A DNA stretch of 64,000 bases from Verrucomicrobiia bacterium (GCA_041395165.1 JAWLBA010000003.1:9900-73899); one strand, 5' to 3'. Positions 21,512 through 39,178 are shown, counted from the stretch's first letter. The notes: a model not told the origin generated them from the letters alone. Numbers and translations are program-made.

Positions 21512-22439
21512 TTCCAATCGGAATCGAAAAACCTCGCACAAAATCTGTCGCTGCCATCCTCTGTTTCCCCTCCAACTGCACTTCACGCAATAAAAGTCCT
21601 CCCTTTTTTGCAGCAACCAAAATGCCGTGTTTATCCACTTTCATGACTTCACCTGGTTTACCGTGACATCGATTGGATAAAATCGTTTTAAAAATTTTTA
21701 AACATTTTCGCTGATTCTCTACTTTCAGCCAAGTATAAGCTCCTGGCCAAGGAATCATCGCGCGAATTTGCCGATCCACGGTCACCTGCTCTTGCTTCCA
21801 ATCAATCCAACCTTCTTCTTTTTTAATTTTTTTAGCATAAGTCGCCTCCTTTTCTTTCTGCTTCGTGCGAGGCGCTTTCCCTTTTCGCAACAAATCTAAT
21901 CCCTCCTTCAAAGTCTTAGGAGCTAACTCTGCCAAACGATCATGCAACATCTCCGCCGTCTCATCGCTTCGAATCGAAAGGCGTTGAGAACACAATATAT
22001 CGCCGGTGTCCAAACCGTCATCCATCCACATGATCGTAATGCCCGAATAACGCTCACCCGCTCGAATAGCAGCTTGAATCGGTGACGCACCTCGATACTT
22101 GGGCAGCAACGACGCGTGAACATTCAAACAACCTAATTTTGGCAAATTCAAAATCGCTTGCGATAAAATCTGTCCGTAAGCAAACACTACAAACACGTCT
22201 GCTTCTAAATAACGTAACTGCGCAATTACGGTTTTTTCATTAATTTTTTGCGGTTGGTAAATACGAATATGCCATTTTAAAGCCGCCTGTTTAATCGGGC
22301 TCGTCTGCAAACGCATCTGTCGACCTGCAGGTCGATCAGGTTGCGTAACAACGGCCACCACTTCATGCTCCTCACTTTTTGCCAAACTATTTAAACAAGG
22401 CACCCCAATTTCACCTGTGCCAATAAACACCACTTTCAT
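21492..22439 (-). CDS. fmt: Methionyl-tRNA formyltransferase
   Basis: VVTQPDRPAGR, AYGQIL, NVHASLLPKYRGASPI, GLDTGD, QLEGK. Confidence 0.97.
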   Translation of the reverse strand: MKVVFIGTGEIGVPCLNSLAKSEEHEVVAVVTQPDRPAGRQMRLQTSPIKQAALKWHIRIYQPQKINEKTVIAQLRYLEADVFVVFAYGQILSQAILNLPKLGCLNVHASLLPKYRGASPIQAAIRAGERYSGITIMWMDDGLDTGDILCSQRLSIRSDETAEMLHDRLAELAPKTLKEGLDLLRKGKAPRTKQKEKEATYAKKIKKEEGWIDWKQEQVTVDRQIRAMIPWPGAYTWLKVENQRKCLKIFKTILSNRCHGKPGEVMKVDKHGILVAAKKGGLLLREVQLEGKQRMAATDFVRGFSIPIGTILESP

Positions 22440-23596
22440 AAAGATACCTGACGAATACGAATCTGTTTTCTTAAAAAAGTGGGAATATCCAAATTTTCAC
22501 CCTGATAAAAAGTTGCATCCGTTTTTTCAAATCGGCCACGATTAGGAGTTTCAAAAGCAAAAGCTTCCTGTTTTAATTCTTGTCCTTTTGCCTTGTCTTG
22601 AGAAACAGGCAAAGGCGCTCGCTCTTCCGACTCTTGCAAGGGCGCTTCGATTGGTGTTTCACTTTTTTGAACTCCTGCCGTCCAAATCACCAATTTTACC
22701 TTACCTTCGTAACTTTCCTCTAAAATGGCATTAAAAATAAAATGCGTATTTTCGTTGCCCACATGCTGCTTCAAAAATTCTGTCGCTTTCTTCACTTCTG
22801 CCAAAGCCAACTTAGGTCCTCCTAAGACTGCTACCAAAACTTCATGTGCCGAAGTCGCTGCATCTCGCAACCAATCATTCGCAATCACTGTCGCAAGCGC
22901 TTCGTCCATAGCATGAGTTCCCTTGCCTTCACCCCATCCAAATCCTCCTTGCAAACTGACACCATGCGATATTTTCGTAATCGCTTTCAATACTTCTTCA
23001 GTCTCCGAAAAAACCAGCCCTTTTTTCGTAATCATTTCCATCAAACCACTCAAACATTGTCTCATCGCTTCAATGACAGCGCTCCATTTTTGATCTGCCC
23101 TTTCGCCCTCTGCCCAACCCTCTTTGGTCAACTGATCTGCTGGAAAAATAAAAACGGCCTCTCCAGTTTTTCTTAATTCCCGCAACATTTGTATAGCCTG
23201 ATTCACACTTCGAACACCTTCCCATTGAAAAGGCGTCGAAACTAAAATAATAGGAAGCGCTCCCTTCTCTTTAACCCAGTTAATAACTGATGTTAATCCG
23301 CCCGCCCCTAATCCTCCTCCTAACGAAACCACCAAAAAAACGATCGCAGATGTTTTAATCTCATTTTTGATTTCTTGCTCATGCAATCGAAATACTTGCG
23401 CACCCACCGATTTATCCCCACGAACTCCCCACCCTCGTAACAAATCCGCACCAATCCATCGCTTCTCTTTTAATGAGCAATTTTTCAAAGCTTGTTCATC
23501 AGCATCCCAACCCATAACTTGCACCGAATCCGTTGCCTTGATCGCATCGATTACCTGAAGCCCTGTGCCGCCTAAACCAAAAATCTGAATCTTCAT
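22436..23596 (-). CDS. ftsZ: FtsZ, highly divergent GTPase domain
   Basis: Directly after ftsA; tubulin/FtsZ layout (IFGLGGTG, GGGLGAG, PFQWEG) and C-terminal ENLDIPTFLRK; ATG 23596 preferred. Confidence 0.85.
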   Translation of the reverse strand: MKIQIFGLGGTGLQVIDAIKATDSVQVMGWDADEQALKNCSLKEKRWIGADLLRGWGVRGDKSVGAQVFRLHEQEIKNEIKTSAIVFLVVSLGGGLGAGGLTSVINWVKEKGALPIILVSTPFQWEGVRSVNQAIQMLRELRKTGEAVFIFPADQLTKEGWAEGERADQKWSAVIEAMRQCLSGLMEMITKKGLVFSETEEVLKAITKISHGVSLQGGFGWGEGKGTHAMDEALATVIANDWLRDAATSAHEVLVAVLGGPKLALAEVKKATEFLKQHVGNENTHFIFNAILEESYEGKVKLVIWTAGVQKSETPIEAPLQESEERAPLPVSQDKAKGQELKQEAFAFETPNRGRFEKTDATFYQGENLDIPTFLRKQIRIRQVSL

Positions 23597-23609: not shown

Positions 23610-24836
23610 TTAAACAATAAATTTCATTTTTTTCAAAGCGCGACTAAATCGCTGCCCTAATGAAGCATCACCTCTCTCTTGCAAAACCCGTTTTTGCCCC
23701 AACAACAAAACTCCCAAAACGGTTGAAAGTTCCGGACGCGCCAACTCGCCCACATTACCATTAAATGCGTGCTCTTTCACCAAAGTAACAGGTAACTGAA
23801 AAATCGTCTCGGCTAAAGTCTGAATTCCTTGAGTTCGCGAACTACCCCCAGTAAGAAAAATCCCTGCTGATAATAAGTCCAAAAAATTGTCTCCCAACTG
23901 TTTTTTAACAATCAACAACGTCTCCTCCCATCGCGCCCTCATGACTTTAATTAAACTTTCCCGATAAATCGATTTCCCAGCAAAACCGCTCATCGGTTTC
24001 AGAGCAATCACTTCATCGCGAACTCGATCTTCTCCGACCACCGCACCTTGCGAGCATTTCAAGTCTTCCGATAATCGCAATGGCAAATTAAACGCGCGAC
24101 TCAAGTCCTGTGTCACATGGTCTCCGCCTACCCCCAAAACACCTAGCGACTCAATCTGTCCATTAATATAAGCCGCATAATGGGTCAACCCTCCGCCCAA
24201 ATCAATTACAAGCGCTCCCAACTTCTTTTGCTCTTCCGTTAACACAGCTTCAGCCGAAGCCATAGGACTCAATGAAAAATCGCACACATCAATTTGCAAC
24301 TCACGCACACGATCCATTACATTGTGCAAGCGACTTGCTACACCGTGTACAATTAAAAATTCACCCTCAACCTGCGTTCCATTCATTCCCACGGGATCAG
24401 AAACGCGCGGCCCCCCATCAATGGAAAAACCTTTCGGCAAAGTCGCCACATGACATCGACCTTCTGGCAAAGACATTTCTTCAGCTAAATCTCGCGCCTC
24501 CTCGATATCTTCTTCCGTCACCACCTTTTTTTCCTGAGAAATCATCGTGGAACCTCGCTGCGCCACACATTCCAAATGAGCACCACTTAAGGCAACAAAA
24601 GCCTCATGAATGACAACATCAGCATTTTCCTCCGCTTTTGCCATTGCTTCGCGCAAAGCGTCTGAAGCCGTCTTGGGGTCAAACACATCACCTTTTCGCA
24701 CTCCAGCAGAACTTGATTCTCCTAAACCCAACACTTTCAATACTCCATCATGCCGGACATGCCCCACCGCCACCACCATCTTACTCGTGCCAGTTTCTAC
24801 TGCCACCAATGTTGTCTCTTTCGAACGAAATAACAT
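23610..24836 (-). CDS. ftsA: Cell division protein FtsA
   Basis: ETGTSK, S.GVRKG, IDLGGGLT, GGDHVTQDL, LTGGSS. Confidence 0.93.
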   Translation of the reverse strand: MLFRSKETTLVAVETGTSKMVVAVGHVRHDGVLKVLGLGESSSAGVRKGDVFDPKTASDALREAMAKAEENADVVIHEAFVALSGAHLECVAQRGSTMISQEKKVVTEEDIEEARDLAEEMSLPEGRCHVATLPKGFSIDGGPRVSDPVGMNGTQVEGEFLIVHGVASRLHNVMDRVRELQIDVCDFSLSPMASAEAVLTEEQKKLGALVIDLGGGLTHYAAYINGQIESLGVLGVGGDHVTQDLSRAFNLPLRLSEDLKCSQGAVVGEDRVRDEVIALKPMSGFAGKSIYRESLIKVMRARWEETLLIVKKQLGDNFLDLLSAGIFLTGGSSRTQGIQTLAETIFQLPVTLVKEHAFNGNVGELARPELSTVLGVLLLGQKRVLQERGDASLGQRFSRALKKMKFIV

Positions 24837-24839
24837 AAT

Positions 24840-25706
24840 CTAAATTTCCATTGGTGCGAATGTCACCGGCACATTACGATTGACCGTGAGATCCGCACTC
24901 AACAATTTACGATGCACTTCACCACAATAATTTAAAATTTTTTCAAATCGTTCCAATTGCGTCTTCAACTGATTCGAAGTAGCCGAAAACCTGACTTTTC
25001 CGCCCTCCTCCAAATTCACCTCCAAAATTCCTTCTTTCGACACATCAATGGAAACCAAATGAAACTGAGCTTGAGCCAATCGTTGCTCCATTAAAGACAG
25101 CAAAAAAAGTGCGCTATAAACCTCACCCGATTCAATCTTTTCGCCAAGCACAATTTTTTCACTATCCACGCCTCGAATTTCCGGCAAATGTCGAAAATCC
25201 TCACCAGGTCGCAAACGCATCACCAACCCTTCTTCATCAATCGTATAATAAGATTCTTCCTGTTCTTCCAACAACGTTTTAATCACAATTCGCGCTAAGG
25301 GTCGTCGTTCCGTCACACGAATCACTAAACGATTTGGCAACTCCCTCAAAACCTCAGCCGTTTGCACCGAAGATTGTGACTCCAAACGCTGTTGAATCGC
25401 TCGCAAATCCAACGCTAAAACATTCGCTTCGGCAGGAATATCTGCCCACCTCAACACTTGATCCCTCTTCAATCGACCTTGCAACTCCACATCCACACGC
25501 GTCAAAGCATAACGCGGATTTTGATACAATAACCCATTCAATGCCCAACGCCCTAAAAAAAATCCCAACACCAACACCAAACCAACTCCACTTAAACCCA
25601 ATACAACATTTCGCAACCGCTTTGCGCCATGATGTCGCCCTCGACTTTTCTGAATGCTCGCACGCAACGAAATCGTTTTTACTCGTCTTACGTCGATTAC
25701 CATCAC
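24840..25706 (-). CDS. ftsQ: Cell division protein FtsQ/DivIB
   Basis: Single TM, POTRA (LALDLRAIQQRLE..V..AEV.R.LPNRL.IRVTERRP); between ddl and ftsA. Confidence 0.88.
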   Translation of the reverse strand: MMVIDVRRVKTISLRASIQKSRGRHHGAKRLRNVVLGLSGVGLVLVLGFFLGRWALNGLLYQNPRYALTRVDVELQGRLKRDQVLRWADIPAEANVLALDLRAIQQRLESQSSVQTAEVLRELPNRLVIRVTERRPLARIVIKTLLEEQEESYYTIDEEGLVMRLRPGEDFRHLPEIRGVDSEKIVLGEKIESGEVYSALFLLSLMEQRLAQAQFHLVSIDVSKEGILEVNLEEGGKVRFSATSNQLKTQLERFEKILNYCGEVHRKLLSADLTVNRNVPVTFAPMEI

Positions 25707-25733
25707 TTAATTTTCTTTTCCCAAATGAACTCT

Positions 25734-26633
25734 TCATAAAATAACATTATTTTTCTTTCTCATTGCTTGCGATAAAAACACAATGCGTTCACACAAATCC
25801 GCAAATCCTATCCCGGCTGCAGCTGCGGCCTTTGGCAACAAACTGGTTTCTGTCATACCAGGAATTGTATTCGCTTCCAAAACCCAGGGTCGCTCTTGCT
25901 CATCCAACAAAACATCCACTCGCGAATAAACCTCACAACCCAAAGCTCGATGTGCACTCAAAGCGGCTTCCTGAACTGCTTCCTTGACTGATTTTGATAA
26001 ATTTGCGGGACAATGATACAACGTTCGACCTGAAGTATATTTATTTTGATAATCATAAAACCCTTCCTGTGGTTCAATATGAACTACTGGCAAAGCTTGA
26101 TCTCCCAAAATGCCAACTGTTAGCTCTTTACCTACAATCATCTGCTCTACGATTACCTCGTCATCATACTGAAAAGCAAGCGTCAAAGCCGAATCCACTT
26201 TTTCTTGTGACATCACTCGAGAAATCCCAACACTGGACCCTTGCCGCGACGGTTTCACCACAAATGGTAAAGCCAATGAAGGATGCTGACCCTTTTTACA
26301 AATTTCAAAAGCAGGCGTAGGCACCTCATGATTCACAAAAATCTCTTTCGAAACCACTTTATCAAAGGCCTTCTCACTGGCCATCTGTCCACAACCCGTG
26401 TAAATTAAATTTTGCTTATCCAAAATAGCTTGCACTTGGCCATCTTCACCAAACGTCCCATGCAACGCGATAAAAACCACATCGCAAACAGGCACCCCAA
26501 ACTCTTCGGAAACCACATCCAATTCGCTGACTTCATGACCTTTTTCACGCAAAGCTTTCGCCACAGCCGCTCCCGAACGCAAAGAAACTTCGCGCTCTGC
26601 CGAAATGCCACCTTTTAAAACCACAATCTTCAT
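25734..26633 (-). CDS. ddl: D-alanine-D-alanine ligase
   Basis: GGISAEREVSLRSG, LHGTFGEDG, GSSVG, EANTIPGMTETSLLP. Confidence 0.97.
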   Translation of the reverse strand: MKIVVLKGGISAEREVSLRSGAAVAKALREKGHEVSELDVVSEEFGVPVCDVVFIALHGTFGEDGQVQAILDKQNLIYTGCGQMASEKAFDKVVSKEIFVNHEVPTPAFEICKKGQHPSLALPFVVKPSRQGSSVGISRVMSQEKVDSALTLAFQYDDEVIVEQMIVGKELTVGILGDQALPVVHIEPQEGFYDYQNKYTSGRTLYHCPANLSKSVKEAVQEAALSAHRALGCEVYSRVDVLLDEQERPWVLEANTIPGMTETSLLPKAAAAAGIGFADLCERIVFLSQAMRKKNNVIL

Positions 26634-28939
26634 TTTGTTATCTTAACACTTTCATTATCTCCTAAAATGATAATTTCCGTTTCCAATTCAACGCCGCGTT
26701 CCGCACGAGCGCGTTGCCGCACCAACTCAATTAATTGCAACACATCCGATGCAGTTGCGGTACCATTGTTTACGATAAAATTGCCGTGCTCTTGACTAAC
26801 CCGTGCTCCCCCAACCGATAAACCTTTTAACCCCAACTCGTCCACCAATTTACCCGCAGGACTCAACGAAGGGTTCTTAAAAATACAACCCGCACTCGAT
26901 GCTGCCGGTTGCGATTCCCAACGTTTTTCACTAAACTTACGCAAACGTTCTTCCACAACTTCTTTTGCTTCTTTTTTACCCTGTAAAACTGCTGATAAAA
27001 CAATTTTATTCTGTAACGTTGGCACACAACGATAATCAGCTTGAATCCCATCTCGTAACAATTCAGTAACTTCACCTTTTTGATTCATGCAACGCACCGA
27101 AACCACTCGTTCAAACATCCACCCTCCCATAGCCCCTGCATTCATAAATAATGCACCACCTAAACTCCCTGGAATTCCTTCCATAAACTCAAAACCACCT
27201 AATCCTTCGCGCTTCGCAGCCGCCACAATCGATTTTAATTTTGCGCCCGCCTGCGCAAAAACTTTATCTTTTACAATTTCAATCTTTGAAAAAAAATCCT
27301 CATGCAAATGCAAACAAACCCCACGAATCCCTCCATCTTTAATTAATAAATTTGATCCCCTTCCAATAAATGTGACAGGCATAGCGTTTTTTTCGCACAA
27401 TTGCAAAACTCTCACTAAAGATTCTTCCCCATCCGGCTCACACCAAAACTCCGCTGGCCCACCCACACGCAAAGTAGTGTGCCGACGCAAAGGCTCATTA
27501 CGAACCACACGTCCTCGGTCTCCAACCACTTTTATTAACTCTCGATAAAATTTCAAATGTTCTACCAAAATCTGCGTCACTTTTCCAATATCACCCGCTC
27601 CCAACACCACAACACAATCGCCTGGCTTCACTTCATGCACCAGTTCTTGTGCCAATGCTAAGCTTTGACCTTGAAAAGAAACTGCCCCATGCCCGGCTAC
27701 CTCAACGGCACGAAACAAATTTTCCCCAGTCACCTCCGGCCAATCCTTTGCTGACTCATCCGCTGGATAAATTCCCGTCAAAAACAAGCGATCTGCCAAA
27801 TCAAAAGCTTTAGCGAAATCCTCCCTTAACGCTTTCGTGCGACTGAACCGATGCGGCTGAAAAACTACCACTAACCGCCTGCCAGTCGCCACCTGCTTTG
27901 CAGCTTCTAGCGTCGCTCGAATTTCAGTGGGATGATGTCCATAATCATCAATTACTAAAAAATGATCACACTCCCATTTAACCTCAAACCTACGACGCGC
28001 TCCTTGAAAAGAAGCAAGTCCTTCCACAATCATTTTTTCACTTAACCCCGCTTCATGCGCCACGGCAATTGCTCCCAACGCGTTTCGAACGTTATGCGAA
28101 CCTGGCAAAGATAAGTGTACTCTCTCCAGCCATAATTTCCCCTTTATCCACACATCAAAACGCGACCCCGATTTATCAAAGACAACATTTTGCCCCTGAA
28201 CATCAACTGAATGACTCAATCCAAAACTAATAACATTTTCAAAATTTTCAAAAACTCGCGTCGCTCCCTCATCATCTCCACAATAAAAAATTTTCCCTTT
28301 CGTTTGTTCTCCCAACTCTCGAAAAACCGATTCAATCGCCTGCAAAGAAGAATAAAAATCCAAATGCTCCTTTTCAATATTTAACACCAAAGAAAAATGA
28401 GGCGCATACTTAGCCAGTGTGCCATCGCTTTCATCTCCTTCAGCAATAAACCAATCCCCCTCACCAATTTTCGCGCTTGCTCCTAACTGCGTCACCACGC
28501 CTCCCACATAGAAAGAACTTTGTGTCTCATGAAACAACCAGGCCAATAAACTTGTCGTCGTCGTTTTTCCGTGCATTCCAGCTACGACAATAGATTTTTT
28601 CTCTACCAACAAAGCCGCCAACAATTCCGCGCGATGAAAAATAGGAATTTTTCTCGTTCGAGCCGATTCCAATTCCACATTACCCTCATCAATTGCCGAT
28701 GAAACCACAACCGCTTGAGCTTGATCCACAAAATTCGACTGATGACCTTGAAAAAAAACCAATCCTTTTTCTTCCAATTGTTGAATAATTCGGCTTTCCA
28801 CCAAATCAGAACCCGAAACCTGATAATCTTTTTCCAATAATAAACGGGCCAATCCCGACATCCCACTCCCTCCTACTCCCACAAAATGCCAAAAACGGTT
28901 GGGCACACGATGATGCAAGCATTGCAGAATTGCACTCAT
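26630..28939 (-). CDS. murC: MurC-MurB fusion (UDP-MurNAc-L-Ala ligase + UDP-GlcNAc-enolpyruvate reductase)
   Basis: GVGGSGMSGLA, HGKTTTT, EGDESDG, DDYGHHPTE; then HTTLRVGGPA, GRGSNLL, GIPGSLGG..MNAGA, SAGCIFKNP, HGNFIVN. Confidence 0.95.
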   Translation of the reverse strand: MSAILQCLHHRVPNRFWHFVGVGGSGMSGLARLLLEKDYQVSGSDLVESRIIQQLEEKGLVFFQGHQSNFVDQAQAVVVSSAIDEGNVELESARTRKIPIFHRAELLAALLVEKKSIVVAGMHGKTTTTSLLAWLFHETQSSFYVGGVVTQLGASAKIGEGDWFIAEGDESDGTLAKYAPHFSLVLNIEKEHLDFYSSLQAIESVFRELGEQTKGKIFYCGDDEGATRVFENFENVISFGLSHSVDVQGQNVVFDKSGSRFDVWIKGKLWLERVHLSLPGSHNVRNALGAIAVAHEAGLSEKMIVEGLASFQGARRRFEVKWECDHFLVIDDYGHHPTEIRATLEAAKQVATGRRLVVVFQPHRFSRTKALREDFAKAFDLADRLFLTGIYPADESAKDWPEVTGENLFRAVEVAGHGAVSFQGQSLALAQELVHEVKPGDCVVVLGAGDIGKVTQILVEHLKFYRELIKVVGDRGRVVRNEPLRRHTTLRVGGPAEFWCEPDGEESLVRVLQLCEKNAMPVTFIGRGSNLLIKDGGIRGVCLHLHEDFFSKIEIVKDKVFAQAGAKLKSIVAAAKREGLGGFEFMEGIPGSLGGALFMNAGAMGGWMFERVVSVRCMNQKGEVTELLRDGIQADYRCVPTLQNKIVLSAVLQGKKEAKEVVEERLRKFSEKRWESQPAASSAGCIFKNPSLSPAGKLVDELGLKGLSVGGARVSQEHGNFIVNNGTATASDVLQLIELVRQRARAERGVELETEIIILGDNESVKITK

Positions 28940-30045
28940 GCTCGTTTCTCCTTGATAGCCCTCATCACCGCATCCGCAACACGTTCGGCACCATCTTCAA
29001 TGGCTACCTTTCGACACGCTTCACGCATCCGCTGCCATTGCTCTTGATCTTCTAATAAAATTTTTATTTTCTGAGCGAGTATTTCGGGTGTGAGAGAATC
29101 CTGTTCCCCCATCCAAGCCGCACCCGCTTTTTCAAAAACTTGCGCATTAAAAAATTGATGATTACCTGCTGCAAAAGGAAAAGGAATCAGCACACTAGGA
29201 ATTTTCCAAGCCGCCAACTCACTTACTGAGGCTGCGCCACTTCGAGAAATGGCAAGGTCCGTAACTCGATAAATTTCAGCCATCTCACCACAAAACTCCA
29301 TCACCTCTGCCTGAAATCCTTCTCGCCGATAATTCAACTCCACTAACTCCTTTTCCCCTTTTCCAGTAAGATGAATAAATTGCCAACGTGACTGTAATCC
29401 CTCCCAACACCGCATGGCTTGAATTACTAATTCATTCAACGCCTTAGCGCCTTGACTTCCTCCCATCACCAAAATCGTTTTCTTTTCGGGAGATAAACCC
29501 ATTTTTTTCAACGTTTCAATTCGATCACCCTTTTGCGGCTTTACTTTTAACGGCGTACCAGTCACACCGGTGTTAACTATCGAAGCCAAATGCGATCGAC
29601 ACGCTTCAAATCCCAATAAAACCTTATCCACCTTTTTTGCTAACCAAGCCGTCACTCTTCCTGGAATCACATTGGACTCATGCGTCAATGTCGGAATTTT
29701 TCTCTCTATCGCATAACGCAAAGGCACAGCCGAGGTAAAACCGCCCATTCCCAATACAGCATCCGGCTTCCAAACTTTGAACCATTTTTCACATTCTCGC
29801 ACTGCTTGAAAATAGCGCCAAAAAAACCCCACCAAAAGAAATGGACGAAACCCAGGCCATCCTACGACCGATAAAACACGAAACTCATAACCTTGATGTT
29901 TACTCAATGCAGAACGATCAATATCTTTATTTGAAACGAGTAGTAGTATTTGATTACCCCGCTCTTGCAACACATCAGCCACTGCCAAACCAGGAAACAA
30001 ATGTCCTCCCGTTCCGCCACACGCAATGGCAACACGATAACTCAT
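28936..30045 (-). CDS. murG: Lipid II N-acetylglucosaminyltransferase
   Basis: GGTGGHLFPGLA, GGFTS, HESN, GGSQGA, RSGA.SVSE, HQFFNA. Confidence 0.97.
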   Translation of the reverse strand: MSYRVAIACGGTGGHLFPGLAVADVLQERGNQILLLVSNKDIDRSALSKHQGYEFRVLSVVGWPGFRPFLLVGFFWRYFQAVRECEKWFKVWKPDAVLGMGGFTSAVPLRYAIERKIPTLTHESNVIPGRVTAWLAKKVDKVLLGFEACRSHLASIVNTGVTGTPLKVKPQKGDRIETLKKMGLSPEKKTILVMGGSQGAKALNELVIQAMRCWEGLQSRWQFIHLTGKGEKELVELNYRREGFQAEVMEFCGEMAEIYRVTDLAISRSGAASVSELAAWKIPSVLIPFPFAAGNHQFFNAQVFEKAGAAWMGEQDSLTPEILAQKIKILLEDQEQWQRMREACRKVAIEDGAERVADAVMRAIKEKRA

Positions 30046-30048
30046 AAA

Positions 30049-31200
30049 TCACGTAAGCCTCTCTCTTTTCTTCCATACCCATCGCGTTTCTTCTTCGCTC
30101 GAAACGTGACGCGCAATACTCACTAACCATCCTGTCATAGCCAAAGCCACCACCAAATTTGATCCACCATATCTAATAAAAGGCAACGCCAACCCTTTAT
30201 TCGGTAACAAACGAGTAACAACTCCCATATTAATAAAAGCTTGCAACCCCACCAATGTCACAATACCTAGCGCCAGTAAAGTTCCCTGCCAATCCGAAGC
30301 GCGCGTTGCAATATAACCACCAATCACTACATACATGACAAAGCCTAACACAATCATTAACGTCGCCCTCAACCCTAACTCTTCACCAATAATTGCAAAG
30401 ATAAAATCGGTATGTGCCTCAGGAAGATAATAAAGTTTTTGGCGACTTTCTCCAATGCCCAAACCCTCTACTCCACCCGAACCCAGTGCAATCAATGACT
30501 GTGTTTGTTGCCAACCCTCACCCTTTTCCACCATTTTATTTTCACGACTGGCGTGCGCCCATAAACGACTTAATCGCTCTTTATCTTTCGATACAATAAA
30601 CCCCACACCTCCGGCCGCTATCACCATCGTTAAAACGAGATATTGCCAACGCACACCTGCCGCAAACCATAAAATCATCAACACTGCGCCCAACAACAAC
30701 GTCGTGCCTACATCTTTTTCAAAAAGAATGAAAAGCAAGACCACACCGCAAACCGCAGCAGGAATACAAAAACCATAAAGAAACGTTTTGACCCGTCGCT
30801 GATTTATATCATACCACCATGAAACAAATAGTAGTAAAGCCAATTTAGCCAATTCACTCGGCTGCAAAGTCAATCCTCCCAAACCCAGCCAACGATTTGC
30901 GCCATTAACTCGCTTCCCAATCCCCGGCACATAACATAAAGCTAAAAGAATCACAACCCCTCCCAACAACCACCAAATATTTTTATTCCAACAACGATAA
31001 TCTCGAAAAGCTGTGACTCCTAAAGCAATCAACCCTAAAATCAACCAAACCGCCTGATTTTTTAAAAATCGAAAACTATCTCCGGCATGGAGCGCTTCCC
31101 TAGAGAAAGCGCTCGCGCTATACAACATCACCAAGCCCAGTCCACAAAAACTGAACAAGATAAAAAATAAAAGCGTGGAACCCTGCCGTTTAAAAAGCAT
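30049..31200 (-). CDS. ftsW: SEDS peptidoglycan polymerase FtsW
   Basis: GANRWL, QPSELAK, SRQKL.YLPEAHTDFIFAIIGEELG, LPNKGLALPF..YGGS. Confidence 0.95.
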   Translation of the reverse strand: MLFKRQGSTLLFFILFSFCGLGLVMLYSASAFSREALHAGDSFRFLKNQAVWLILGLIALGVTAFRDYRCWNKNIWWLLGGVVILLALCYVPGIGKRVNGANRWLGLGGLTLQPSELAKLALLLFVSWWYDINQRRVKTFLYGFCIPAAVCGVVLLFILFEKDVGTTLLLGAVLMILWFAAGVRWQYLVLTMVIAAGGVGFIVSKDKERLSRLWAHASRENKMVEKGEGWQQTQSLIALGSGGVEGLGIGESRQKLYYLPEAHTDFIFAIIGEELGLRATLMIVLGFVMYVVIGGYIATRASDWQGTLLALGIVTLVGLQAFINMGVVTRLLPNKGLALPFIRYGGSNLVVALAMTGWLVSIARHVSSEEETRWVWKKRERLT

Positions 31201-32093
31201 AGATTTTTATTGTCCGGACATCGCAACATGAGAAGCCTCAATTTTTGAGGCGAAGCGGCTTTAGAAACTTCAGTTTCCACTGGAATCTTTAACTGCATAC
31301 CCACACCAATTTTATTAGCATCTTGAATTTGATTAGCTTCTAAAATTAATTGTGGTTTCGTGCCAAATTTTTTAGCAATTCGATAAAGCGTGTCACCCTT
31401 GATCACCGTATAATTCTCCATTCTTTTCGCAGTAGATTTTGTTTCTTCAACAGGTTTAGTCACAGTATTTTTCACACTGGCAACTACAGGCGTGGAATTG
31501 ATAGCAGGAGAAGAAACCGCTGTTGTTGGTTGCGATTGTGGCACCGGCATTACAGGTAAATTTTGCTGAGTCGCAATCATTTTCGAATCGGAAACTTTCA
31601 AAATCTGACCCAAACGAATCTTATCATTCGTCAACTGATTCCATTTCAACAAATTCACCAAAGTAATTTTGTATTGCTTGGCAATTTTACTTAATGTGTC
31701 ACCTTTCGCCACCGTGTGCAAAAGCGGCGCTGAAGCCACCATCTCTTTTTTTACTTCCTGAACAGCAGCCTTAGGCGTCATCACAGGCGGAGGCAAAGTA
31801 GAAGTGACAGCGGGTTTGGCAATATCCTTCTCCTCCGAAGCTACAGTAGGAGTCGTTTGACTGATTTCCTCTGCTATTTTTTGAACTTGCGGTTCGCTGA
31901 CTTCCATTTTTTTTCTGGATCGACTCTTTTGCGGTTTTTCCGAAACTTCGCTCACACTAGTTTCCGCACCACCTCGCCAATATTGAAACGCAAAAGCGCC
32001 ACCGATCACCACAAGATGAACAACTAAGACAATTAAAAAGACATGCGACAAACGAATACCTTCTTTACTTTCTTTTTCCCATTGATTTTCCAT
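31128..32093 (-). CDS. Membrane-anchored LysM-domain protein (2 LysM); true stop probably near 31207
   Basis: N-terminal TM (VFLIVLVVHLVVIGG), HTVAKGDTLSKIAKQY and YTVIKGDTLYRIAKKF; ATG 32093 preferred; overlap into ftsW suggests an indel. Confidence 0.85.
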   Translation of the reverse strand: MENQWEKESKEGIRLSHVFLIVLVVHLVVIGGAFAFQYWRGGAETSVSEVSEKPQKSRSRKKMEVSEPQVQKIAEEISQTTPTVASEEKDIAKPAVTSTLPPPVMTPKAAVQEVKKEMVASAPLLHTVAKGDTLSKIAKQYKITLVNLLKWNQLTNDKIRLGQILKVSDSKMIATQQNLPVMPVPQSQPTTAVSSPAINSTPVVASVKNTVTKPVEETKSTAKRMENYTVIKGDTLYRIAKKFGTKPQLILEANQIQDANKIGVGMQLKIPVETEVSKAASPQKLRLLMLRCPDNKNLCFLNGRVPRFYFLSCSVFVDWAW

Positions 32094-32115
32094 ATTAATT
32101 TCTCCTTTTTTGAAT

Positions 32116-33453
32116 TTAATCGACATTTTCCTGTAAAAGTTTTTGCACCATTGCTTTGAATTGATTGCCACGATCCGCATAATCGCGAAACATGTCAAAA
32201 CTGGAACAACCGGGTGACAACAACACCACATCACCTGCTTGCGCTAAACACACAGCTTGATTAAAAGCCTCTTGAAAATCTGGTGCGAACAAACAATTAG
32301 CCTTCACCCAGACCTGTTTTAATTTCGATGCAGTTTCTCCTATTAACACCACACCTCGAGTTCGTTTCGCTACTAGCTCTGCTACAGAATCAAATTCAAA
32401 TCCCTTATCCTTACCACCCGCAATTAAAACAATGGGATTAGGAAAACTTTCAATCGCTTGTACCATAGCGTCTACATTGGTTGCTTTAGAATCATTAATA
32501 AACGTCACCCCTTTTATTTTTCCAACCCACTCACATCGATGAGGGGCAAGACGAAAATTAATCAACGCCTTCACAATTGCTGACTCTTCGATTCCATAAT
32601 ATTGAGCCACTGCAATCGCCACCATGACATTTTCCGCATTGTGCAATCCCTCCAAAGGCAAGGATTCCATAGCAATAATTTTGCGACCATGATAACAAAT
32701 CACACCCTGTTCCAAAGTATAATCCGCCGCCAATCCTCGCGCAGAAAAAGTAATCGTTTTCGCTTTTAAATCCAACTGACCAAAGGAAGCATTAACAATT
32801 GCCAAATCACCAGCATCTTGATTTTTAAAAATTTTTAACTTTGCAGCAAAATATTCACTCATCGAATCATAGCGATCCATATGATCCGGTGAAATATTCA
32901 ACAACGCAGCAACTTTCGGATGAAAATGAACGGTTTGCTCCAATTGGAAAGAACTTGCTTCCACCACCGTCACATCTCGTTTATCGCTATCATGAATCAC
33001 TTCACTCAAAGCCAAGCCAATATTACCTGCAGCACACGATCTTTTACCACCCGCAGTTAAAATAGCATGAACTAACTCCGTTGTTGTTGTTTTCCCATTC
33101 GTTCCTGTAATCGCAATTAAAGGACATTGACAAAAACGATAAGCCAACTCCAATTCACTCCATATTGGTACTTTGGCTTTCAATAAACTTTGAATCATAG
33201 AGCGCCGAGGATCAATACCGGGGCTCAAAACTCCAAAATCAAAACGCATCTCATCCGCACGAATAAACTTTCCCAACTCAACATGAATTCCTCGCGCCAA
33301 CAAAGAATTAGCACGTTCTCTCAACAACTCATTATCCGATTCGTCTCTCACTGTAACCTCCGCTCCTAATCCATGAAGCAAACGCGCCGCTGCCAAACCA
33401 CTGGCACCCAGCCCGATCACCACAACTTTTTGTCCGCTCCATTTCATAACCAT
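32116..33453 (-). CDS. murD: UDP-MurNAc-L-Ala-D-Glu ligase
   Basis: [41 protein letters not shown]. Confidence 0.97.
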   Translation of the reverse strand: MVMKWSGQKVVVIGLGASGLAAARLLHGLGAEVTVRDESDNELLRERANSLLARGIHVELGKFIRADEMRFDFGVLSPGIDPRRSMIQSLLKAKVPIWSELELAYRFCQCPLIAITGTNGKTTTTELVHAILTAGGKRSCAAGNIGLALSEVIHDSDKRDVTVVEASSFQLEQTVHFHPKVAALLNISPDHMDRYDSMSEYFAAKLKIFKNQDAGDLAIVNASFGQLDLKAKTITFSARGLAADYTLEQGVICYHGRKIIAMESLPLEGLHNAENVMVAIAVAQYYGIEESAIVKALINFRLAPHRCEWVGKIKGVTFINDSKATNVDAMVQAIESFPNPIVLIAGGKDKGFEFDSVAELVAKRTRGVVLIGETASKLKQVWVKANCLFAPDFQEAFNQAVCLAQAGDVVLLSPGCSSFDMFRDYADRGNQFKAMVQKLLQENVD

Positions 33454-33469
33454 TCATGCTTCATCTACC

Positions 33470-34565
33470 TCATCGTAATTTCAAAGTTAACAAAGCCAGC
33501 GACGCAAAAAAAACGCCAAGAATCCAAAATCGAACCACCACCGTTGTCTCACTCCACCCTTTCAATTCGAAATGATGATGAAGTGGCGCCATCGCAAAAA
33601 TCCTTTGACCAGTCAGCTTAAAAGAGGCCACTTGCAAAATCACCGAAAGCGCTTCCATCACAAACACACCACCCACAACCAACAATAAAAATTCTTGATT
33701 AATACAAATCGCAATCGTGCCCAAAGCTCCCCCAATTGCCAAAGAGCCAGTGTCACCCATAAAAACTTTTGCTGGATAACAATTGAACCATAAAAACCCT
33801 AAAGTCGCGCCCACTAGCGCAGCAGCAATCACCGTCAACTCACCTGTTCCAGCCGTATAAGGCATAAATAAATACTCAGCCAATTTCACATTGCCCGACA
33901 CATAGCTAAAAATACCAAACACCAACGCCACAATCACCGTGCATCCCGCAGCCAAACCATCTAGCCCGTCTGTTAAATTTACTGCATTTGAAGAGCCCGT
34001 TAACACCAAAGCAAAAAAGCCAAAGCTCCCCAACCCATCGTTAAAATTGGTTCTTTAAAGAATGGCACTTCCAACTGAGACGCCTGTCGACTCGTTGCTT
34101 CATCACTCAACAAAGTGGCTCCGATCACAACAGCCAACACAATTTGCACTAAAAGTTTTACTCGACCCGAACTCCAGCCGATTTCTTGCGTTTCACTTTC
34201 AACAAATCATCCCAAAATCCCAACCCGCCTAAAATTAGCATCGCAAACAAAGTCAAAAGAACAAATCGATTTAAAATCGGTGCCCACAACACAGTAGCAA
34301 TCACCACCGCTGCTAAAATCATCACGCCCCCCATCGTCGGCGTTCCACTTTTTCCACCATGCAATTCAGCTAAACGATGAACCTCTTCCTTAGCATGAAT
34401 CGGTTGACCCAATTTTAACTCGGTTAACTTACGAATAATCCAGGGTCCAAAAAATAAACAAAACAAAAGACCCGTCGTCGCCGCCCCTAATGCACGAAAA
34501 GAAACGTAACGAAACAAGTTAAACGCACCAAACGTCTCAGAATAACGATGTAACAATTCTAACAT
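33470..34565 (-). CDS. mraY: Phospho-MurNAc-pentapeptide transferase, two apparent -1 deletions (~34170 and ~34030)
   Basis: [47 protein letters not shown]; adding one base at each site restores the frame. Confidence 0.93.
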
Positions 34566-35942
34566 GAGTGATTCCTTTCTGGAACGCTCCCTACCAACGC
34601 TTCTACCACCCGTTCTAACCGTGCTGAGCGCGACGCCTTCACCAAAATCACATCATTTGCACCTTCATTTTCCATAAGGAAATCGATAGCCTCTTCGATT
34701 CCACCAAAAGTTTTAACCTTTATCTTATTAGCAATTCCCTGCGCATAATTTTCCGCTTCACTCCCAATCGCTACCACCAAATCCAAAGGAAGTTGAGCTG
34801 CTTCTCGACCTACATAACAATGCCACTGGCTCGACTCCTCACCCAACTCACCCATACTACCCAACACCGCAATTCGTCGACCTGATAATCCAGCTAAATA
34901 ATGCAAAGCTGCTTTCATGGAACTGGGATTAGCATTATAAGAATCATCAATCACCTTTCCGCCACCTTGCGCAACATATACTTTCATGCGCCCGGAAGGT
35001 AAACTCACCCGCTTCAATCCTCCCGCCATCTCATCTAAAGAAAAATCTAACGATAAACCCGTAGCAATGGCCAAAGCAGCATTCCCCGCCAAATGTCGCC
35101 CCACCAATGGCAGTTCAAAAATTTTCTCATCGCCCTGAAAAATCACACGAAAAGATTGCCCGTTATCATTTTCTTTTAATTCAATTACTCGAACGTCAGC
35201 CGATTCACTAAACCCGGCTGTTAAAACCCTCCCTTTTGCTTTACCACGCAACAATTCCGTCCAAGAATCGTCTGCATTTAAAATGGCAGTCGCTTGAGTT
35301 TTCATTCCCTCAAGCAACGCTCCTTCCTCCTTGGCAACCCCCGCTTCATCTTTAAAAAATTCCAAATGTTCCAAACCAATATTGGTAATAACTCCCACAC
35401 TCGGCTTAACCAATTTCGTTAAAAAAGCAATTTCGCCTGGATGATTCGTGCCTAATTCCACTACCGCTGCTTCATGCTCAGGATTAATTTCCAAAAGCGT
35501 CAATGGCACACCAAGATGATTATTTAAATTACCCAAAGTTTTCGCAGTTTTACAACGTTGACCTAATGCTGCCGCAATTAACTCTTTTGTGCTTGTCTTA
35601 CCGTTACTTCCGGCTACCGCCACAATCGGAATCTTAAGACTATTGCGATAAACAGACGCTAACTGCTGTAATGCCAATACAGTGTCATCAACACAAATTA
35701 ATGGAAACTCTTTCGGCGTTTCTACATCACGCTCCACAACAGCAGTCGCAGCACCCCGTTCAATGGCTTCTCCAATAAAATTATGAGCATCGTAACGCTC
35801 TCCTTCAATGCAAAAAAGCAATCACCTTTTGTCACTCGACGCGAATCTGTGCTCACACCCAAACTTGAGTGGCACTCGAAACATTTCGTCCCGACAACAA
35901 AAATGCATCATCCCAAACTTCTATCAATTCCGAAAGCTTCAT
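34559..35942 (-). CDS. murF: UDP-MurNAc-tripeptide-D-Ala-D-Ala ligase, two apparent -1 deletions in first 130 bp
   Basis: ATG overlaps murE stop (TGATG); GVSTDSR, GSNGKTSTKE, NNHLGVP, DDSYNANPSSM, VKASRS. Confidence 0.92.
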
Positions 35943-37407
35943 CACTCGCATACCTCCTCCAGAATTTTTCGCGCCACTTCCCTATCATGAAAAGGGTAAC
36001 GCACGCCCTCAATTTCTTGATACGTTTCGTGGCCTTTACCCGCAATCAGAACAATATCTTCCGCTTCCGCTTCATTGAGTGCTGCACGAATTGCTTCCTA
36101 CGATCGACCACAACTTCAAAACCGTTGCCCTTTTTTAGCCCAGCCACGATTTCTTCAATAATAGATTCTGGCTTTTCAAATCGTGGATTGTCCGATGTCA
36201 CATAAACTCGATTACTCAACTCCATCGCAACGGCACCCATCAAAGGACGTTTGCTTCGATCACGATTTCCACCACAACCAAACACTGTAATCAAACGACG
36301 ATGTGGCACTTGTGCCAATGTTTCCAACGCTTTCCTTAATGCATCATCTGTATGAGCATAATCCACAAAAACTTTAAGCCCTCGAACATTCGGCACCGCT
36401 TCCAAACGACCTGGCACTGATGGCGCACTTTCTAAAGCTTGTGTTAATTCCTGAAAAGCCCCGCCCAACATCAATCCCGCTCCCATCGCCGCAGCAGCAT
36501 TAGCAACATTAAATTTCCCAAACAAAGGCAACGCTACGGAACAGTGTTGACCTCGATAAACAAATTCAGCCAAACAACCCCTATCATGCCAACCACGTAA
36601 TTCCCATCGTAAATCTCCAACATTTTCACCAAAAATAATTTTCCTGTCAGATTCCAATAAAAAATTTTTCAACAACATTTGACCACGTTCATCGTCTCCA
36701 TTCACCACCATCGCGCCAGGTTTTTGTTGCTGAGCCAAACCAGCAAACAAACGTTGCTTTGCCAAAAAATAAGATTCCATTTCCGAGTGATAATCCAAAT
36801 GATCACGAGTTAAATTAGTAAAAACCGCTACATCAAAATCCACTCCACCCACCCGATATTGATCCAATGCATGAGAAGAAACCTCCATCACGGCCGCACG
36901 ACAATTCTCTTTCACCATCCTTTGCAACAGCGCATACAACTCACACGATTCCGGCGTCGTATGAGTCGCCGGCTCAACGCAATCTCCAATCTCATAACAC
37001 ACCGTTCCAATCAATCCACAACGCAATCCCATCGATTTCAAAAGATGTTTTGTCAAAAAAGCCGTTGTTGTTTTACCATTCGTTCCCGTAATACCAACTA
37101 TTTGCAACTGACGATCTGGAAAATCGAAAAAGCGCTGCGCAATTTTTGCCATAGCCATTCGCGCATTCGCAACTTCAACTCGAGTCACTTCTGTTTCAAA
37201 ATTTTCCTCACCTACAACTGCCACCGCCCCATGACGAACCGCCTCTTGAATAAAATCGCGTCCTTGTTTTTGGCTTCCTGACAAAGCAAAAAAAAGATCC
37301 CCCTTTTTCACGCGACGCGAATCATAAGCCAATCCGTTTACTTGAATTTTTGTTTCACCAAAAAGACGAGCCGATGACACCTCCTGAATTAATTCTTGCA
37401 ACATCAT
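35942..37407 (-). CDS. murE: UDP-MurNAc-dipeptide-mDAP ligase, -1 deletion near 36095
   Basis: [46 protein letters not shown] (mDAP-type); shifted tail [11 protein letters not shown]. Confidence 0.93.
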
Positions 37408-39178
37408 CGGCTCGCCACCTCCCAGAAAGAAGTTTCAGGACTCAGATCCAAGTGTCGTGCAATGCGTGAAGCCATTGCGGAAAAAACGGGTGCTGCTACT
37501 TGACCGCCATAAATTCCACCACTAGAAGGCTCATCAATAATCGTTAACAGAGCAAACTCAGGATCTTGTGCTGGCAAAAACCCAATAAAAGATGCCAAAT
37601 ATCGTTTGTGCGAATATTCTTTCGCTTCATTATCCCATTTGCGCGAAGTCCCAGTTTTTCCCGCTACGGTAAAACCTTCGACTGCAGCTTTACCTGCTGT
37701 GCCTTCTTGTGAAACCACTGACGACAAAGCTTTAATCACCTGCTTCGCAATTTCCGGTCGAATAATCTGTTTCACAACTCGCGGACTGTAACGTGCCACC
37801 ACACTACCCTCTTCATCCAAAACCTCATGAATTAACATAGGTCTCATGAGAACCCCATCATTAGCAATGGCCGACATAGCAGTAATCATTTGCAAAGGTG
37901 TAGCAGCTACTTCATAACCAATCGGAACGCGCGTAATGGAAAGTTTCGACCACTTTGTCAAAGGTCGTAACGTACCAATTTGCTCGCCTGGCATAATCTG
38001 ATTTAAAACCGTTTGCCCAAAACCAAATTCACGAATGTAGCGATAAAGCAACGTCTCACCTAATTTTAAACCCAACTTAGCAAAACCAACATTACTGGAT
38101 TTTTGCAAAACCTGTTCCACCGTCAAAGTCCCATAACTGCTATGATCTCGTAAAGGTACGCCTGCCCAAAACCATAAACCATTTTCACAAAAAATCGGTG
38201 TATCAAGGGTTACCAGTCCCTCATTGAGTGTCGCAGCCGTGGTAACAATCTTAAAAGTCGACCCAGGTTCAAACGTGTCCGTTACACATCGGTTATCTTC
38301 CCAAGTTAAACTCGCTCGCTCGTTAGGATCATAAGTAGGACGATTGGCTAACGCTTTAAATTTCACCTGTTTTTTGGCCTCATCACAATTGCATAAGCGG
38401 CTGCAGGCGGAATAATTAGTCATTGCCTTGTCTAACTCTTTTTCAACAATGTATTGAATTGTTTGATCCAATGTAAGTGAAATAGAGTAACCATTTTTAC
38501 TGGCGCATCTTGCGAACGATAAGCGCGAATCTCGTGCCGACTGGCATCATGCTCTGAAACATACCAACCATCGATTCCTTTTAAATAATGATCCATCGAA
38601 GCTTCAATACCATCCTTGCCATTCCCTTCACTATCAACATAACCCAACACATGACTCGCATTTCGCCCTTCGGGATAACGACGTTGATATTCGTCCACGC
38701 CCAAAATGCCAGGCCATTGGAAGGCCTCGATTTTTTCCCAGGCTGAAAGCTCTACTTTCTTTTTTAAAACAACCAATGAACGAGAATCGTTTAAACGTTT
38801 TAAAATCTCCTCTGAATCCATTTCCAAAAAAGGCGCTAGCGATTGAGCTATTTGCTCTAAGGATATTCTTTTTTTAGGATTTTTTGTTTCCTGATTTTTT
38901 TGAATGATCTGTCGTATTCGAAAAAGATCTGCTTGAATGGTTTTATAAGGAATGCTGGTCGCCAAAAGATTACCATTACGATCCAGAATATCACCACGTC
39001 AGGCGTAAACCATTTTACGAAAAGTATGATTTGCTGCCTGCTCAGGCCTGAAATAATAATCATGCTTCCCTACCTGCACTTCTAACAAACGCAAGGAAAG
39101 AACAGTAAATAAAAAAACTAAACCGCTAATCGCAAGTACTGCGCGCTTTCGCATGTGTTCTGTCCAAGAAAAATTCAT
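37404..39178 (-). CDS. ftsI: Penicillin-binding protein FtsI/PBP3, in three frame pieces
   Basis: N-terminal TM, RGDILDRNG, RRYPEG, FEPGSTFK (SxxK), KSSNVG (SxN), GKTGT (KTG). Confidence 0.9.

Follow-up and report, generated by a model that had tools for sequence, protein, structure and literature searches.

A sole-copy FtsZ with a divergent nucleotide pocket, maintained under selection in a small clade of uncultured Verrucomicrobiae

Can a walled bacterium divide with an FtsZ in which about half of the residues that bind and split GTP in model bacteria are replaced? GTP-driven treadmilling of FtsZ is thought to guide septal wall synthesis in such cells, and the question is raised by one gene in a 64,000-nucleotide stretch of DNA from a Verrucomicrobiia bacterium (GCA_041395165.1, JAWLBA010000003.1:9900-73899; hereafter the window, with positions counted from its first letter). 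The window belongs to a metagenome-assembled genome (MAG) of 1.78 Mb, 83% complete and 42.5% GC, for which a same-genus genome (G001; 95% complete, 9 contigs) provides a close comparison. Judged by its fold, its synteny and its tail, the product of the window's ftsZ is a true FtsZ, yet it fails the sequence-motif tests by which an active GTPase is defined. We see an even chance that the protein forms filaments which FtsA tethers and which serve as a scaffold, their turnover of nucleotide being strongly reduced or altered; the host may in that case divide by means of a Z-ring that hydrolyses GTP slowly or not at all. It is neither a mere adaptor nor a decaying gene. The gene and its C-terminal parts lie as follows.

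22436..23596, minus strand: ftsZ coding sequence, 386 residues, a divergent FtsZ (ATG at 23596, stop codon at 22436-22438).
22571..22660, minus strand: disordered linker, residues ~313-342 (predicted local distance difference test score, pLDDT, <50), hypervariable even between the two congeners.
22439..22570, minus strand: conserved 44-residue C-terminal tail (ratio of non-synonymous to synonymous substitution rates, omega, 0.020).
22466-22492, minus strand: LDIPTFLRK, residues 369-377, the canonical FtsA-binding peptide, inside the 44-residue tail.

An in-frame TTG at 23617, 21 nucleotides upstream of the ATG, is used as a start in no orthologue. The product matches Pfam families PF00091 (Tubulin; 71.2 bits, cut-off 33) and PF12327 (FtsZ_C; 39.1 bits, cut-off 27) and misses the equivalog level of the FtsZ model TIGR00065 (140.5 bits against a cut-off of 295.2). 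Its best solved relatives are ordinary FtsZs (E ~1e-29). An AlphaFold2 model built from 37 homologues has a mean pLDDT of 81.6 (~90 in the core), with residues 1-310 confident (blocks mostly 85-95), and the best 50 PDB matches returned for it by Foldseek are all FtsZ, at target-normalised TM-scores of up to 0.87. As predicted, the protein has a confident FtsZ fold, a Tubulin/FtsZ GTPase domain followed by the C-terminal domain. With canonical FtsZ (TIGR00065; Bacillus subtilis 2vam/2vxy, Mycobacterium tuberculosis 1rlu, Escherichia coli) it shares this two-domain fold, the slot after ftsA in the division and cell wall (dcw) cluster, a disordered linker, the DIPxFLRK C-terminal peptide and glycine-rich T1 and T4 loops, although identity to the canonical structures is only ~22-26%. 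A preliminary description, made by eye from the window alone, had picked out an FtsA-binding tail, ENLDIPTFLRK; alignment bears this out, the docking peptide D-I-P-x-F-L-R-K being present and the tail as a whole being 98% identical to that of an orthologue (P0003) which is 67% identical overall.

It is in the nucleotide pocket that the protein departs from its relatives. We aligned it with E. coli FtsZ (NC_000913), 28 Verrucomicrobiae FtsZs and five metagenomic orthologues, and each of the changes previously read by eye in T1, T2, T3, T4, H7 and T7 appears there. They are listed below, with substitutions in E. coli numbering.

23552..23578, minus strand: T1 loop GLGGTGLQV, residues 7-15; G21T and N24Q, with G19, G20 and G22 kept.
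23498..23506, minus strand: T2 DAD, residues 31-33; N43D, with D45 kept and Q47 kept just downstream.
23411..23434, minus strand: T3 loop GWGVRGDK, residues 55-62; A70V and G71R.
23300..23320, minus strand: T4 tubulin signature GGGLGAG, residues 93-99; T108L and T110A, no fit to PROSITE PS00227.
23207..23233, minus strand: PFQWEGVRS, residues 122-130; F135 and E138 kept, S130 in place of R142 (R142S).
23135..23143, minus strand: T5 PAD, residues 152-154; N165A.
23072..23128, minus strand: LTKEGWAEGERA, a clade-specific conserved segment that carries an insertion of three residues, then the start of H7, KWSAVI (F182W and N186I).
22991..23020, minus strand: T7 loop GLVFSETEEV, residues 193-202; N207F, D209E and D212E, near-invariant within the clade.

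The PROSITE pattern [SAG]GGTG[SAT]G is thus replaced by GGGLGAG, on a retained glycine backbone, and the T7 synergy loop N-x-D-x-x-D reads F-S-E-T-E-E, with Asn changed to Phe and both Asp to Glu. Of the residues that contact guanine or ribose, taken together with the arginine-finger-like one, only E138 is kept, the rest being lost to R142S, N165A, F182W and N186I. Pocket residues that do persist are G19, G20, G22, D45, Q47, G67, G69, G105-G107, G109, G111, F135 and E138, and R129, equivalent to K141, is kept next to the position of the lost R142. Over a panel of 30 canonical nucleotide-contact and catalytic positions the window FtsZ scores 16, its congener 17 and the 67% orthologue 14, against 20-30 for the 28 other Verrucomicrobiae FtsZs. 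The word 'degenerate' used for these motifs in the preliminary description therefore fits the pocket changes themselves but goes too far in two respects: the T1 and T4 glycine backbones are intact, and F182 and both T7 aspartates are replaced conservatively (by Trp and Glu), so that the charge of T7 is kept. Alpha-tubulin has Glu at the second of the two T7 acidic positions.

What such changes would do can be gauged from single mutants. In Staphylococcus aureus FtsZ the gamma-phosphate and catalytic water are held by T109, the T3 backbone and G72, and R143 is arginine-finger-like, a positive charge there being required for hydrolysis; R143Q abolishes assembly and catalysis, R143K lowers GTPase activity six-fold and stabilises filaments, and N208L, D210N and D213N each abolish assembly, N208L catalysis as well (PMC8936486). 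The window FtsZ has no equivalents of T109, G72, R143 and N208. In E. coli FtsZ, T108A eliminates GTPase activity, and the rings that the mutant forms on membranes are static and do not rotate (10.1101/079533). By analogy, the window protein would have lost the holder of the catalytic water (G71), the arginine-finger-like residue (R142) and the base contacts N165 and N186, and because T108, G71, R142, N165, N186 and N207 are all gone, weak or different binding of guanine nucleotide and slow or no hydrolysis are to be expected. The engineered GTPase-deficient proteins (EcFtsZ T108A; SaFtsZ R143K/Q, N208L, D210N and D213N) are altered at the same positions, but they carry single laboratory changes and are mostly non-functional in vivo, whereas the window FtsZ combines many changes in a naturally maintained sole copy. 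Our literature search found no account of natural sole-copy FtsZs lacking T108, R142, N165 or N207.

Could the unusual motifs be errors of assembly, or could a canonical ftsZ lie in the 17% of the genome that is missing from the assembly? The ftsI, mraY and murF genes of the same cluster do contain homopolymer indels, and the MAG is 83% complete, but on the draft genomes compared we regard either explanation as very improbable. PF00091 has exactly one match in the window MAG and one in the congener, and Tubulin_2 has none in either, which leaves FtsZ as the sole tubulin-family gene of both; the search for a second, canonical ftsZ that the preliminary description had proposed thus returns a single copy, also at 95% completeness. 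The same motifs occur in that independent congener (86% identity) and on two independent metagenomic contigs; their presence in G001 and in the 67% metagenomic orthologue shows that the substitutions are not sequencing noise, as had been argued earlier from their number and frame. The gene also occupies the orthologous dcw slot: the order murG-murC(B)-ddl-ftsQ-ftsA-ftsZ-fmt is the same in the window, in G001 and at the metagenomic loci L037 and L036, which carry P0003 and P0005, respectively, and on these two contigs it extends through ftsZ-fmt-rhomboid-moeB. Identical gene order makes the P0003 and P0005 proteins orthologues. Identity to the window FtsZ (P0001) is 86% for G001, 67% for P0003 and 48-49% for P0004 and P0005, with a further fragment, P0006; the protein databases contain no more than this handful, and among 1.8 billion cluster representatives the next score after them is 161 bits, down from 323. 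Searching genome contigs for related loci with the FtsZ protein gave no match, and the neighbouring MoeB/ThiF protein, used as a query, matched named Verrucomicrobia MAGs, none with ftsA or ftsZ beside moeB, and so added no orthologues. These uncultured Verrucomicrobiae form a very small clade, and the window gene is its orthologous ftsZ, a sole copy encoded within the dcw cluster. Outside the genus, a family-level relative has a 1036-residue open reading frame with a strong match to Tubulin_2 (PF13809, 183 bits; G004:C132:1962-3008), which the window genus does not share.

The orthologues also order the changes. In P0004 and P0005 the sequences GVGGAG and GGGTGSG, G71 and R142 are kept, N165 is lost and the derived H7 and T7 are already present. 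T108, G71, T110 and R142 have then gone from P0001, P0002 and P0003, the three closest, in which a new T3 arginine (R59; E. coli position 71) is fixed where the deeper orthologues have Gly. The signature Thr itself is Leu in these three, Ile in P0006 and retained in P0004 and P0005. Judged from the aligned proteins, the nucleotide pocket has been remodelled stepwise along syntenic orthologues at 67% and 48% identity. The preliminary description had stated that its reading would fall if close relatives shared the substitutions and the protein hydrolysed GTP and polymerised normally; close relatives do share them, and our alignment speaks to that half only.

The main alternative is a GTPase rewired but still competent, which would treadmill with Glu-x-x-Glu as the catalytic pair, Trp stacking on the base, and R59 or R129 in place of R142. 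The acidic T7 pair is conserved throughout the clade, the glycine loops, D45, Q47 and E138 are retained, the loss of R142 falls on the same branch as the gain of Arg at position 71, and the N-terminal domain is under purifying selection; at least 15 further FtsZs that bear verrucomicrobial tails have T108 replaced, which suggests that the lineage tolerates such a change. We nevertheless lean against this possibility. In P0001, P0002 and P0003 the residues are A, A and L at position 110, S, N and C at position 142, and A, A and S at position 165; positions that differ so freely among the three closest orthologues look like released constraint, with no new solution fixed. P0003 further carries G20N and G105S, the latter being the change in the ftsZ84 allele. 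Among the folded parts of the protein the N-terminal domain is under the weakest constraint, and N208L alone halts assembly of S. aureus FtsZ (PMC8936486).

How strongly, then, is the gene maintained? Between the two congeners dN/dS is 0.23 for ftsZ, 0.023 for ftsA and 0.07-0.10 for fmt, ftsQ, ddl and murCB. In pairwise comparison with the 67% and 48% orthologues dS is saturated, and we therefore used a maximum-likelihood codon model over four lineages, in all of which the ftsZ frame is open. It gives omega values of 0.125 for the N-terminal domain, 0.062 for H7-T7, 0.076 for the C-terminal domain and 0.020 for the 44-residue tail, beside 0.028 for ftsA, 0.047 for fmt, 0.051 for ftsQ and 0.060 for ddl. 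Such values indicate purifying selection on a gene that is maintained and not decaying. FtsZ is the fastest-evolving protein of its neighbourhood at every depth (86/67/48% identity against 98/91/80% for FtsA), and the per-domain check suggested in the preliminary description makes the GTPase domain its fastest part and the FtsA-docking tail its most constrained. Dividing N-domain identity by C-domain identity gives 0.71-0.89 for the clade and 0.96-1.51 for ten pairs of other Verrucomicrobiae. The usual constraint pattern of FtsZ is inverted: the N-terminal, nucleotide-binding domain, normally the most conserved in canonical FtsZ, is here the least constrained folded part.

This divergence, the highest in the neighbourhood, is what one might expect of a dispensable relic nearing loss, its host dividing by means of FtsA, FtsK and MreB while FtsZ drifts; MreB is encoded in the genome, and FtsZ has been lost elsewhere in the Planctomycetes-Verrucomicrobia-Chlamydiae superphylum (PMC5147048; PMC12283558). 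Yet omega of 0.06-0.13 across four lineages with open frames, a strongly conserved C-terminal domain and tail with many clade-specific invariant residues, and a dcw position retained across orthologues just 48% identical make this improbable. Invariant positions within the clade amount to 42-49% of H7-T7 and the C-terminal domain, against 28% of the N-terminal domain. Many depart from the class consensus, among them KKGLVFS[DE]..EVLKA (near-invariant), QGGF.W, WLR and GW.EGE[KR]A, and they point to new, lineage-specific constraints, above all on the T7-H8 surface of longitudinal filament contact. The near-invariance of that surface, together with the retained acid-x-x-acid arrangement in T7, suggests that the subunit interface is preserved. 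These data also qualify two earlier suggestions about the role of the protein. That it is kept as an FtsA adaptor agrees with the tail being its most constrained part but is too narrow, since the globular domains are likewise under purifying selection (omega 0.06-0.13) and T7-H8 is near-invariant. That it marks an intermediate toward FtsZ-independent division is not upheld: the FtsQ/A/W/I set is complete, MreB is present, and neither Chlamydiae nor Planctomycetes descend from this lineage. A third suggestion, that the protein is GTPase-dead, extrapolates from mutants of other species, and the adjacent R129 and the new R59 could offset the loss.

We return to the slow-turnover, FtsA-tethered scaffold. 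In this mechanism the protein's binding of guanine nucleotide would be weak or altered, and hydrolysis would be slow or absent. Subunits would nevertheless join head to tail by way of the conserved T7-H8 surface, with FtsA anchoring the polymer to the membrane at its invariant tail. The resulting filament, static or of slow turnover, would organise septal wall synthesis dependent on FtsQ, FtsW and FtsI. Several observations weigh against it. The argument borrows the phenotypes of single mutants of E. coli and S. aureus, while here many changes co-occur and may compensate one another. Both T7 catalytic acids persist as Glu; the phosphate-binding glycines, D45, Q47, E138 and an aromatic residue at 182 are all retained; and the N-terminal domain, at omega 0.125, is still clearly constrained. 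R129 adjoins the lost R142 and the new T3 arginine arose on the very branch of that loss, so that R129, R59 or both could compensate for it. The MAG is 83% complete, although the congener, at 95%, leads to the same result.

A more radical version, which we think unlikely, would have this sole FtsZ work with no GTP hydrolysis and perhaps no guanine nucleotide at all: a constitutive FtsA-tethered filament in which R59 of T3 pairs in trans with the T7 glutamates and so replaces the nucleotide-mediated contact. If that were true, the syntenic series would be a natural record of a walled bacterium uncoupling division from FtsZ treadmilling, running from P0005 and P0004, with signature and R142 intact, to P0003, P0001 and P0002, with both lost.

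The dcw cluster is complete and lies wholly on the minus strand, in the order ftsI, murE, murF, mraY, murD, a LysM protein, ftsW, murG, a murC-murB fusion, ddl, ftsQ, ftsA and ftsZ; ftsZ is its last gene, followed by fmt. The open reading frame of ftsZ is uninterrupted and stands directly after ftsA, as first described.

23610..24836, minus strand: ftsA, canonical and highly conserved (TIGR01174, 291.5 bits against a cut-off of 175.9).
24840..38965, minus strand: remainder of the dcw cluster (ftsQ, ddl, murC-murB fusion, murG, ftsW, LysM protein, murD, mraY, murF, murE, ftsI).
26630-28939, minus strand: murC-murB fusion, 769 residues.
31128-32234, minus strand: LysM-domain protein between murD and ftsW.

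The window FtsA is 98% identical to that of G001 (omega 0.023-0.028). Fusion of murC and murB, a known verrucomicrobial trait (PMC12283558), is found in the P0003 lineage also, and in the P0005 lineage (L036) murB is a separate gene of 343 residues. The LysM protein keeps the same place in the dcw cluster of the P0003 lineage (L037:1560-2366). Three window genes are broken: ftsI (37404-38965) and mraY (33470-34565) are each split into two open reading frames, and murF (34559-35870) is truncated at its N-terminus. Each break is a one-nucleotide homopolymer deletion relative to the intact G001 gene (A5 for A6, T6 for T7 and similar). Errors in the assembly consensus are their most likely cause, and on this ground we rejected pseudogenisation. 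Unlike these three, ftsZ is colinear with its G001 counterpart; a compensating frameshift behind its hypervariable linker was considered and rejected, the linker being in frame and truly divergent at the DNA level.

How exceptional is the clade within its class? In an FtsZ tree every lineage of the window's order sits on a long branch, and the stem of the clade measures 1.37 + 0.6 substitutions per site. FtsA identity tracks taxonomy (44-54% within the family, 30-40% within the class), whereas identity over the FtsZ core is flat at 24-29%. The PROSITE signature is missing from 40 of 185 collected homologues; in at least 15 of the 40, T108 has given way to L, I, M, F, C, A or S, and nearly all aligned FtsZs with a substituted T108 bear the verrucomicrobial tail motif; on these counts motif drift in FtsZ is recurrent in Verrucomicrobiota. 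T108 (to F, L, M, I, C or A) or the T7 aspartates have been lost independently in L010 (genome G002), L015 (G005), L005 (G021), P0012, P0133, P0173 and P0086, with T7 acids reading E..E in L015 and D..K in L010; the sole FtsZ of G002 scores just 70.9 bits on PF00091. These and other substituted verrucomicrobial FtsZs resemble the window clade in their tail motif, in being sole or dcw-resident copies and in a partial loss of nucleotide contacts. They keep 18-28 of 31 key residues, however, against 15-17 of 31 in the window clade, which combines loss of T108, G71, R142, N165 and N207. On the evidence of these residues the clade is the extreme case of verrucomicrobial FtsZ motif drift among the FtsZs examined.

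The classical modulators ZapA (PF05164), MinC (PF03775) and SepF (PF04472) were undetected in all 21 Verrucomicrobiae genomes searched (G000, the window MAG, to G020). An absence shared by all of them is uninformative about the window clade in particular, but it may be linked to the generally fast evolution of FtsZ in the class. A tail of ~45 residues, F.FE.P.RGRFEK....T.Y.GE[ND]LD[IV]PT[FY][LI]R[KR], is kept across the class (loci L004-L031); it is far longer than the usual C-terminal peptide and is the best-conserved part of these proteins.

Elsewhere in the phylum, the FtsZ of Verrucomicrobium spinosum is described as divergent and retains the signature GGGTGSG (PMC1845146). Transposon-directed insertion-site sequencing (TraDIS) shows it to be essential, including its C-terminal extension (PMC12283558), to which the class-wide tail may correspond. 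It shares with the window FtsZ the phylum, a long branch, a dcw cluster with a murC-murB fusion and a conserved or essential C-terminal region beyond the usual peptide; it has been described as canonical in its motifs, whereas in the window FtsZ the signature and several catalytic and base-contact residues are gone.

The label 'canonical', drawn from a few cultured species, therefore cannot be extended to verrucomicrobial FtsZ throughout the phylum: motif loss recurs, and it does so in a superphylum where two other phyla have lost FtsZ entirely. The positions changed in the window protein are ones at which mutations inactivate FtsZ in model species. A peptidoglycan-containing host whose only FtsZ is without these residues and yet remains under selection would test to what extent FtsZ function needs GTP turnover, and the clade offers graded natural intermediates suited to comparative biochemistry.

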